The position numbers and the translations under genes were made by a program. From the UHGV virus genome UHGV-0204464: 42,624 nt of DNA; one strand, given 5' to 3'. This document shows, piece after piece, positions 28,698 to 30,835 of this stretch (positions are counted from its first letter, which is position 1; each line of letters opens with the position of its first letter). The stretch comes from a virus. The notes beneath the pieces were generated by a model. The model had not been told where the DNA came from and searched no databases. It was given only the letters and a program-made list of their open reading frames with translations.

Positions 28698-28876
28698 GGC
28701 GACAGCAACGAAGTATCACCGACATAATCTGCGAAAACTGCAAATACCTTCCAACGAAACGCTCCAGAAATAAACGCAAGCCAATCCCAAAAGAATCTGA
28801 CGTAAAAACCTTCAACTACACGGCTCACCTGTGGGATATCCGGTGGCTTAGAGAACGCGCGAGGAAAACAAGGTGA
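28694..28876 (+). CDS. ninE: NinE
   Basis: [60 protein letters not shown] matches lambda NinE. Confidence 0.85.
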
Positions 28877-29043
28877 TTGACCAAAATCGAAGTTACGAAC
28901 AAGAAAGCGTCGAGCGGGCTTTAACGTGCGCTAACTGCGGTCAGAAGCTGCATGTGCTGGAAGTTCACGTGTGTGAGCACTGCTGCGCAGAGCTGATGAG
29001 CGATCCGAATAGCTCAATGTACGAGGAAGAAGACGATGAGTGA
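28873..29043 (+). CDS. ninF: NinF-like small Cys-rich protein (GTG start)
   Basis: GTG-initiated ORF (M)[47 protein letters not shown]...; overlaps ninE stop; not in the supplied track. Confidence 0.6.
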
Positions 29044-29248
29044 TTACCTGAAATGGTATCTCTGCCACCGCTGGCTAATTAAGTTTGCTGTAAAAGACTG
29101 GATGACAGCGGATGCCAACAAACTTAAGCAAAGAAAGGACTATTACTACGCCAGAATGAAGGAAAACTACTGCTCAATTCGCACTCGCATATTTATTAAA
29201 AAAGACCTTCAGTCAATTCTTCAATTGCGAGGGAAGGTAAATGGCTAA
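29036..29248 (+). CDS. Hypothetical nin-region protein
   Basis: 70-aa ORF with ATGA overlap to upstream gene. Confidence 0.45.
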   Translation: MSDYLKWYLCHRWLIKFAVKDWMTADANKLKQRKDYYYARMKENYCSIRTRIFIKKDLQSILQLRGKVNG

Positions 29249-29531
29249 CCTACGCAAAGAAGCGCGCGGCAGAGAATGCCAGGTACGTATTTACGGCGTA
29301 TGCAATGGAAATCCTGAAACTACAGTTCTGGCACATTACCGGATGGCTGGAATTTGTGGAACGGGGATGAAGCCTGACGACCTGATCGGTGCATGGGCTT
29401 GTAGTGACTGCCACGCGGAGATCGACCGACGCACAAGGATTCTCGACAACAAAGACGCCAGACTTTACCACCTCGAAGGCGTGATCAGGACGCAGGCGAT
29501 ACTGCTGAAGGAGGGGAAGATTAAGTCATGA
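29241..29531 (+). CDS. YbcO-like (DUF1364-type) Cys-rich protein
   Basis: 96 aa; ARGRECQVRIYGVCNGNPETTVLAHYR and CSDCHAEIDRR motifs resemble E. coli DLP12 YbcO from memory. Confidence 0.55.
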   Translation: MANLRKEARGRECQVRIYGVCNGNPETTVLAHYRMAGICGTGMKPDDLIGAWACSDCHAEIDRRTRILDNKDARLYHLEGVIRTQAILLKEGKIKS

Positions 29532-29890
29532 ACGAATATCAGTTTGTGCTTCCATACCCGCCGTCGGTGAACACCTACTGGCGAAGACGGGGAAGCCAAT
29601 ACTACATCAGCGATAAAGGAGAGAAATACCGAAAAGACGTTCAGCAAATCATCCGCCAACTCAAGTTAGACATTTTCACTAAATCACGACTCCGCATCAA
29701 AGTCATCGCAGACGTTCCAGACTCCCGCCGCCGCGACCTCGACAACATCCTGAAAGGTTTACTCGACTCCCTTATCCACGCCGGATTTGCGGAAGACGAC
29801 GAGCAATTCGATGACATTCGCGTAATTCGTGGCGTGAAAGTACCAGGCGGAAGGCTTGGAATAAAAATCACCGAACTGGAGAGCGTATGA
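29528..29890 (+). CDS. rusA: Holliday junction resolvase RusA
   Basis: 120 aa; LPYPPSVN..., DSRRRDLDNILKGLLD, GGRLGIKITEL motifs match RusA. Confidence 0.85.
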   Translation: MNEYQFVLPYPPSVNTYWRRRGSQYYISDKGEKYRKDVQQIIRQLKLDIFTKSRLRIKVIADVPDSRRRDLDNILKGLLDSLIHAGFAEDDEQFDDIRVIRGVKVPGGRLGIKITELESV

Positions 29891-30030
29891 ACAAAGCATT
29901 CGAACGATATATGCGCCAGCGTTATGGCAATCGCTACGATCTGACCCGCGATACTGGCGGTTTCTACTGCCGTGAGGTTGTGAAACGAATGTTTGAAGTG
30001 TGGTGTCATTGCAAAGGATGGGAGATCTGA
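29887..30030 (+). CDS. Hypothetical small protein (47 aa)
   Basis: ATG overlaps rusA stop; stop adjoins candidate Q start; not in the supplied track. Confidence 0.3.
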   Translation: MNKAFERYMRQRYGNRYDLTRDTGGFYCREVVKRMFEVWCHCKGWEI

Positions 30031-30644
30031 TGCGGTTAACTCCAGTATTCAGCATGGTTAACTTCATTAATGACGCGCACTTTCGCCGCGTATGGAGACA
30101 CCCGAAGAAAACCATCAACTCTAGCCAGAAAGCATGGGTTCATTACATGTTACAGGTATGGGGCAAGGTTAATGCCGGAGATTGCTCTCCAGGTGGTGCA
30201 ATTAACGTTATCGGTCGTCTGATGATTCGCAGTCAGTGGAGCGATGACAAGGCTAAGCAGATAGAGTCTGTCGTCATGCGCCTGTACGAAGAAGATGGGC
30301 TGCGCGGAGATGTGCTATACAAGAAAGCTCGCGAACTGGTCATTCCTCAATCATCGTTTAGCCACATCATCACTCTCGCCAAAGAATCAGATGATGCGGC
30401 TTTCGTTGAACGTGTGATGGTCAAGACTTTTCACCGTGAAAGCCCCGTCCGCGATGTAGCTATTAAGCGATATTGCAATCGCAATTGCACGCAAGATATA
30501 GCCAGGATGATTTCTTATATAACAGGTGCTGATATTCAATATTGTCGTAAGCGAGTGGTGTGGTGTGAGAAAGTGCTGGAGTCAGAAATGTTTTATGCAA
30601 TGAAACGAGAATTGGAGAAAGAATTTCCATTGATAGCGGCCTGA
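30030..30644 (+). CDS. Putative late-gene antiterminator (Q position)
   Basis: ORF between rusA and the PR'/tR'/lysis region; start ambiguous (30000 or 30030); no zinc-finger motif like lambda Q recognised. Confidence 0.5.
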   Translation: MRLTPVFSMVNFINDAHFRRVWRHPKKTINSSQKAWVHYMLQVWGKVNAGDCSPGGAINVIGRLMIRSQWSDDKAKQIESVVMRLYEEDGLRGDVLYKKARELVIPQSSFSHIITLAKESDDAAFVERVMVKTFHRESPVRDVAIKRYCNRNCTQDIARMISYITGADIQYCRKRVVWCEKVLESEMFYAMKRELEKEFPLIAA

Positions 30645-30737
30645 ACTGAAATAATTTTGTAAATGCGTTGCTTCCGAGAAATGAAAGTGGTATTTTTCGT
30701 ATATGCTCGGAGCAAAAGCGAACTGAGCAGCGAAATT

Positions 30738-30790
30738 GAAATCCTGATTTCCCCGGTTGCCGATAATATTTAGGGTCGACATACTGGCTA
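30738..30790 (+). promoter_or_regulatory. Candidate late promoter PR'
   Basis: TTGAAA-18-GATAAT or TTGCCG-17-CATACT, 15-60 bp upstream of the tR' hairpin. Confidence 0.3.
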
Positions 30791-30802
30791 GATTAGGTAA
30801 GA

Positions 30803-30835
30803 GCCTCGGCATAAACGTCGGGGCTTTTTTGTTTG
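30803..30835 (+). terminator. tR'-like rho-independent terminator
   Basis: GCCTCGGC-ATAAAC-GTCGGGGC hairpin followed by TTTTTTGTTTG. Confidence 0.55.

Follow-up and report, generated by a model that had tools for sequence, protein, structure and literature searches.

The 47-codon open reading frame (ORF) that bridges the Holliday-junction resolvase gene rusA and the Q-position gene of UHGV-0204464 is, taken as a whole, best explained as a genuine coding cassette that occupies a slot in the nin region and probably supplies an early accessory product, a reading to which we assign a probability of about 0.85. The window, by which we mean the entire 42,624-nucleotide stretch of viral DNA that was analyzed, had earlier been described in a sequence-only reading that placed a short ORF directly against the rusA stop and the Q start. 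Reading the sequence together with the ORF list confirmed both the position and the two overlaps, with an ATG start and a product of exactly MNKAFERYMRQRYGNRYDLTRDTGGFYCREVVKRMFEVWCHCKGWEI. The finding is correct and also ordinary, in that the gene belongs to a catalogued family (phrog_3871) and is already a RefSeq hypothetical protein. For the annotation of the window it means one more real gene to call at 29887..30030 and a start of the Q-like gene fixed at 30030 (Table 1).

Table 1. Coordinates of the small gene, its translation signals, its mosaic junctions and its two neighbors in the window.
Feature	Position	Strand	Details and basis
Small protein gene	29887..30030	+	47 codons plus stop; phrog_3871; conserved core codons 1-44 = 29887-30018
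Shine-Dalgarno GGAGAG of small gene	29878..29883	+	Within rusA 3' end; sequence read
ATGA overlap, small-gene start / rusA stop; also left mosaic junction	29887..29890	+	Sequence
Variable tail, codons 45-47 plus stop; right mosaic junction	30019..30030	+	Alignment of contexts; differs with downstream gene
TGATG, small-gene stop / Q-like start overlap	30028..30032	+	Sequence
rusA, Holliday-junction resolvase, upstream neighbor	29528..29890	+	Pfam PF05866, E = 1.7e-16
Q-like antiterminator candidate, downstream neighbor, 204 aa	30030..30644	+	phrog_753, E = 7e-67

An ATG-initiated ORF of 47 codons is not significant by itself, and it is conservation that gives it meaning. Counting all six frames, the window contains 161 ORFs that begin with ATG and reach 47 aa or more, compared with about 93 in mononucleotide shuffles, and the commonness of such lengths by chance is the one point in favor of regarding this ORF as an accident of a non-coding spacer. 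Against this, the translated product matches the phrog_3871 profile with E = 2.5e-30 and 105.6 bits, residues 1-46 aligning to profile positions 1-46 of 48, and the C-terminal part of phrog_17609, a variant of 80 aa, is matched as well. Among 5.8 billion proteins searched there were 87 homologs, which share 64-95% identity with it along most of its length; where a source is named, they come from the Enterobacterales genera Escherichia, Shigella, Salmonella, Klebsiella, Citrobacter, Enterobacter, Pantoea, Cronobacter and Franconibacter, and are named only ‘hypothetical protein’, ‘Bacteriophage protein’ or ‘Uncharacterized protein’. When 21 diverse members were aligned, a single internal gap of two residues was needed and 17 residues were invariant, all of which are present in the window protein. 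Family members measure 44-49 aa and are marked by F5, E6, R16-Y-D-L-T20, D22, G25, Y27, R29-E30, V32, R34-M35, W39 and G44.

The DNA of 27 homologous loci, collected for tests of frame and codon position, gives the same picture at the nucleotide level. None of the 27 loci has a stop in the small-gene frame, and each of the other five frames is interrupted by stops in 12-27 of them. Variable columns at codon positions 1, 2 and 3 number 27, 23 and 42 of 44, and dN/dS (Nei-Gojobori) lies between 0.03 and 0.38 where dS is measurable; in distant pairs the synonymous sites are saturated with dN still at or below 0.31. Because the profile match, the homologs, the open frame, the third-position variation and the dN/dS values all attest to conservation, we consider from the comparative sequence evidence that the ORF is almost certainly a real translated gene, and a chance origin extremely improbable. 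The sequence-only reading had named a frame broken in close relatives that keep the flanking genes as the observation to look for; the frame is intact in every locus, both in the same-flank close relatives (the E. coli prophage L001, phage PhiR5_2 and the Intestinirhabdus alba locus) and in distant loci with entirely different flanks. It had also argued from the tight coupling that the ORF is translated, and here the conclusion stands on other ground, since the credibility of translation comes from conservation across unrelated contexts and not from the coupling.

The family is narrow. A profile search of 1.84 billion cluster representatives matched only 27 clusters and found no domain-level relatives in larger proteins apart from one fusion to an excisionase (Xis), described below; a 993-aa match in the same search (P0099) was discarded as a low-complexity repeat artefact. 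Within the window, neither tblastn nor a six-frame profile search detected a second copy of the gene.

The ORF was previously called unannotated, which is true of the gene track used in that reading but not of the public databases. At the same place in L001, an E. coli prophage that is 98.8% identical, the RefSeq/PGAP annotation includes the CDS WP_004031418.1 (‘hypothetical protein’), which differs from the window protein by one residue. RefSeq calls a 44-aa version in the enteropathogenic (EPEC) strain E2348/69 (WP_001030161.1) and 48-aa versions elsewhere (WP_001030139.1 and others). By blastn, homologous DNA is present in about 16% (861 of 5426) of complete E. coli genomes, and a ‘hypothetical protein’ CDS lay under the match in 30 of 30 rows sampled across the blastn ranking, with some older phage records, such as those of phiP27 and VT1-Sakai, having no call for the small gene. 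The carriers of homologous DNA include the Stx1 phage VT1-Sakai, other Stx-converting phages and O157:H7 chromosomes. Literature searches with the accessions, the PHROG identifier and peptide strings yielded no papers, and no expression or proteomic data were found.

The gene sits in a tightly packed part of the nin block, in which, from position 28873 onward, stops and starts overlap. The GGAG core of its putative ribosome-binding site ends 5 nt before the ATG at 29887, and the GGAGAG site is conserved in L001 and in a further related locus (L002). Bases 29887-29889 form the start codon and 29888-29890 the rusA stop codon TGA, giving the sequence GTATGA. At the other end, the last A of the small-gene TGA (30028-30030) is the first base of the Q-like ATG, and a Shine-Dalgarno sequence GGGAG for the Q-like gene lies at 30020-30024, within the tail codons of the small gene and 5 nt before the Q-like ATG. 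The TGATG arrangement recurs in L001 and PhiR5_2, and TAATG takes its place in I. alba. No promoter-like or terminator-like site was found inside the ORF by a promoter and terminator scan, and no credible Rfam match by an Rfam scan, the sole match (Spy779816) falling inside the Q-like gene with 29.8 bits against a gathering score of 67 and being regarded as noise.

Such an anatomy might be taken to indicate a leader or bridge that acts only in cis, moving ribosomes from rusA to the Q-like gene and setting the dosage of Q through a peptide that has no function of its own. Both overlaps, the placement of the Q Shine-Dalgarno within the last small-gene codons and the retention of the stop/start overlap in L001, PhiR5_2 and I. 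alba speak for it. However, it is the peptide and not just the frame that is conserved, as the invariant residues and the dN/dS values demonstrate; the gene is also conserved where no Q follows, both before xis and where it closes an island in Citrobacter phage K1M, and the small ORF is absent from phages UPF_BP1, 29485 and ENT47670, which express the same Q-like gene. We regard a purely cis-acting role as very improbable. A cis coupling effect probably exists in addition to the function of the protein, but it cannot be the reason for the maintenance of the gene.

The start of the Q-like gene had been left as either 30000 or 30030, and it is true that both candidate codons are in the same frame. 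The GTG at 30000, being in frame with the Q-like gene, would allow the region of the small ORF to be read as part of a longer Q-like protein, a proposal that we find as implausible as a chance ORF. The N-terminus MRLTP(V/I)F at the ATG is conserved in PhiR5_2, UPF_BP1, 29485 and ENT47670, although the DNA upstream of the Q gene in the last three is unrelated to that of the window, and the Q frame meets a stop 3-6 codons upstream in all four (6 codons in PhiR5_2 and 3-4 in the others). Moreover, the match to the phrog_753 profile sets in at residue 12 of the form that starts at ATG 30030, and in the sequence itself no Shine-Dalgarno precedes the GTG. The N-terminus, the upstream stops and the missing Shine-Dalgarno resolve the ambiguity, and the Q-like gene very probably starts at ATG 30030. 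The related idea that the small ORF is itself the N-terminal part of the Q-like protein was rejected, given that it lies in a different frame, that the Q frame has upstream stops in relatives and that Q occurs without the ORF. UPF_BP1, 29485 and Tbat2_3 encode 80-aa proteins ahead of the Q-like gene; these were also considered as diverged homologs of the small protein and were dropped for want of any alignment.

The annotation ‘anti-termination protein Q-like’ is given to homologs of the Q-like protein in UPF_BP1, ENT47670 and ST64B. In the window, the region 30645..30830 (+) beyond the Q-like gene contains a strong hairpin resembling an intrinsic terminator, followed by a T run, at 30799-30828, some 150 nt past the end of that gene. 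This layout would correspond to the late promoter plus early terminator expected for the action of a Q-type antiterminator; a simple scan identified no promoter.

When the window is aligned with six other contexts, similarity begins exactly at the ATG and ends after the invariant G44 codon, with both flanks unrelated between contexts. The match to E2348/69, for instance, ends at window position 30019. What follows G44 depends on the neighbor: before the Q-like gene the tail reads WEI, WEV, WGL or GEI and then a stop that overlaps the ATG, in E2348/69 the stop comes directly after G44, and before xis the tail is LSVV or LDVV. These junctions show the small gene to be a self-contained mosaic cassette. 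It illustrates cleanly how a very small phage gene can behave as a precise mosaic unit, with the last few codons rewritten to supply the ribosome-binding site of whichever gene follows.

On the left side, relatives that carry ninH lose similarity to the window at 29892 (query position 393), right at the shared ATGA; the phages with rusA followed by ninH in that comparison are HK97, HK022, HK620, mEp043 and others. Because similarity to the ninH phages stops at the shared ATGA, the small gene of the window fills the slot where most relatives carry ninH. The two genes share this slot between resolvase and Q, for which ninH is the usual occupant (as in lambda, HK97 and HK022), and they share small size and the ATGA overlap with the rusA stop, but they have no sequence relationship (no Pfam match, NinH included, at E up to 1). 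They are also not functional alleles, because PhiR5_2 and the Serratia prophage each possess a NinH-type gene as well as the small gene. The lambda nin region is dispensable, as the nin5 deletion shows. A second site in the same region of the window is also variable: at 29036..29248 (+), between ninF and the YbcO/DUF1364 gene, lies a 70-aa ORF with no significant Pfam match, at the site where L001, L002, HK97 and HK022 carry a 240-aa KilAC/Roi antirepressor gene. This is another nin-region cassette swap.

Members of the family were found in three kinds of genomic slot. The commonest is directly upstream of an excisionase gene, where the leftward early operon ends, as seen in phiP27, Fels-1, E. 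coli GB089, E2528-C1, STEC367 and many species representatives; for BP-4795, VT1-Sakai and other Stx phages the match coordinates, and only these, are consistent with the same position. The second is in the nin region just before Q, where the gene precedes two unrelated types of Q. One type is the phrog_753 Q-like gene, which follows the small gene in the window, L001, PhiR5_2, I. alba (L018) and Serratia quinivorans (L032), the Q-like protein at the Serratia locus being only 58% identical. The other is represented by E2348/69, in which the small gene precedes an unrelated gene annotated ‘antitermination protein’. In the third slot, found in Citrobacter phage K1M and Salmonella phage CF-SP1, the gene is the last of a five-gene plus-strand island between tail genes, together with DUF2591 and DUF551 genes. 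In K1M a hairpin-like GC-rich sequence follows the small gene, and no integrase, excisionase or Q is annotated anywhere in the complete K1M record.

The frequency of the first slot raises the question of whether excisive recombination, or another DNA transaction, has the protein as a cofactor or modulator that works with Xis-type DNA-bending proteins, in which case the nin-region copies would be displaced passengers. Most homologs are indeed located 8-15 nt upstream of an excisionase gene, with several xis types among them, and a basic, aromatic-rich protein is compatible with nucleic-acid binding. There is in addition an in-frame fusion of a family member to a DUF1233 excisionase in one metagenomic phage. 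However, the partner excisionases are mutually unrelated, comprising at least two types (DUF1233 and AlpA-like proteins of 63-66 aa), which argues against a specific protein-protein partnership; the window gene is about 15 kb from the xis and int of its own genome, which are lambda-type rather than DUF1233; and K1M has the gene with no annotated integrase or excisionase. The fusion itself is present on two contigs only and may be no more than a lost stop codon, since the xis ATG is retained. An excision cofactor is thus improbable in our assessment. The fused protein (P0107, L017:3977-4336, logan:DRR526068_3821) comprises a diverged family member joined in frame to the excisionase; its gene lies directly upstream of an integrase on a metagenomic contig, with the stop of the small gene missing and the ATG of xis kept.

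The predicted product has a mass of 5.9 kDa and a pI of about 9.2, and 19% of its residues are aromatic. AlphaFold2, run with the 21-sequence alignment, gave a mean pLDDT of 81 with three helices (residues 3-13, 15-18 and 29-42) and a hairpin (21-27) bearing the invariant RYDLT-D..G-Y motif, so that a basic helix / beta-hairpin / helix fold is predicted with low confidence. A structural metal site is unlikely, because the family does not strictly conserve the three cysteines or the histidine. The 47-aa protein matched no Pfam family at E up to 1 and no NCBIfam model, four family members matched no PADLOC defence-protein family at E up to 1, and a PDB profile search gave no match to a known fold, the match to the TALE protein dHax3 being repeat-driven, with no stretch significant alone, and taken as spurious. 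Classification as an excisionase or recombination directionality factor of the DUF1233 or AlpA type was rejected as well, there being neither a family-model match nor a winged-helix fold. It was also considered that the small protein might be a stand-alone version of the N-terminal ‘AFE.W...G.Y’ module of DUF551/Ea22-like proteins; this found no support, the matches of the protein beyond its own family being weak ones only (phrog_343, E of about 0.03-0.1), and by eye the DUF551 and DUF4222 neighbors bear no resemblance to it.

As for the role of the genuine early cassette that we favor, the nin genes of lambda are delayed-early genes read from pR, and by the same organization the small gene would be transcribed with the nin genes of the window in the delayed-early rightward operon. 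Its translation would be coupled to that of rusA through the ATGA overlap while also using its own GGAG, and termination at TGATG would pass ribosomes on to the Q-like gene, whose Shine-Dalgarno is in the last small-gene codons. The protein itself may act in trans as a nonessential early accessory factor that binds a macromolecule conserved across enterobacteria, whether a host protein, a phage protein or a nucleic acid, and that acts independently of both Xis/Int and Q, although we hold these last two points with low confidence. We lean toward the trans-acting reading because the peptide sequence is conserved, because the gene is kept beside unrelated neighbors and because it is found in K1M with no annotated integration genes or Q; on balance an accessory binder of this kind is somewhat favored over a cofactor of recombination or antitermination. 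The lambda nin region is dispensable, as the nin5 deletion shows.

A narrower and more tentative proposal, which we consider rather unlikely as it stands, is that the family is a dedicated early effector of one specific target conserved across enterobacteria. The extreme conservation of the 44-residue core across genera, the mobility between three slots and the presence in a phage with no annotated integrase are compatible with it. If this were true, the protein could inhibit a host defence or host regulatory protein, or could tune lysis-lysogeny or induction as exo-xis genes do, and its placement before xis and before Q, where early operons end, would mean that it is made only after antitermination. 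The phrog_3871 family is a reasonable, though not urgent, candidate for a functional screen.

In relation to known systems, the window gene is the same gene as the other phrog_3871/phrog_17609 members (WP_004031418.1, WP_001030161.1 of E2348/69, WP_001030139.1, Fels-1 STM0895.1n and BP-4795 ORF3), with a full-length HMM match, the same length and the motif F-E...RYDLT-D..G-Y-RE-V-RM...W....G. It differs from most phrog_3871 members, which lie upstream of xis at the end of the leftward early operon, in being placed in the nin region before Q and in having a C-terminal tail (WEI) specific to its Q-like neighbor. The exo-xis-region genes of lambdoid and Stx phages are a further parallel, because homologs of the small gene are mostly in the corresponding region by xis and are likewise small, conserved, non-structural early genes. 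Influence of exo-xis genes on lysogenization and prophage induction is described in one report (PMC3824215), and their expression at the earliest stages of lytic development in another (PMC8614690). This likeness rests on the position of the relatives of the small gene, as no sequence match was found (no Pfam hit) and the window copy itself lies outside the exo-xis region.

A few members of the family depart from the general pattern. In PhiR5_2 (L008:1902-2144) and in P0020 the 80-aa form (phrog_17609) consists of the 47-aa gene plus an in-frame upstream extension of 33 codons; this may be an over-extended start call, since the start shared by the family falls on an internal ATG at L008:2001. 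In Klebsiella sp. WOUb02 (L033:3001-3057) only residues 29-47 match, beside a candidate excisionase-like ORF, and this copy, the sole disrupted one seen, may be degraded in a decaying prophage. Finally, two records are attributed to Flavobacteriia, Chryseobacterium sp. 18061 (L026) and Elizabethkingia phage EKP1, and carry a copy that has 70% identity with its enterobacterial counterpart; in the Chryseobacterium record the small gene is followed by an excisionase gene whose product is 76% identical to the excisionase of Klebsiella phage P18-100, which suggests that the records are contaminated or the host is mis-assigned, and not that the family truly spans phyla.
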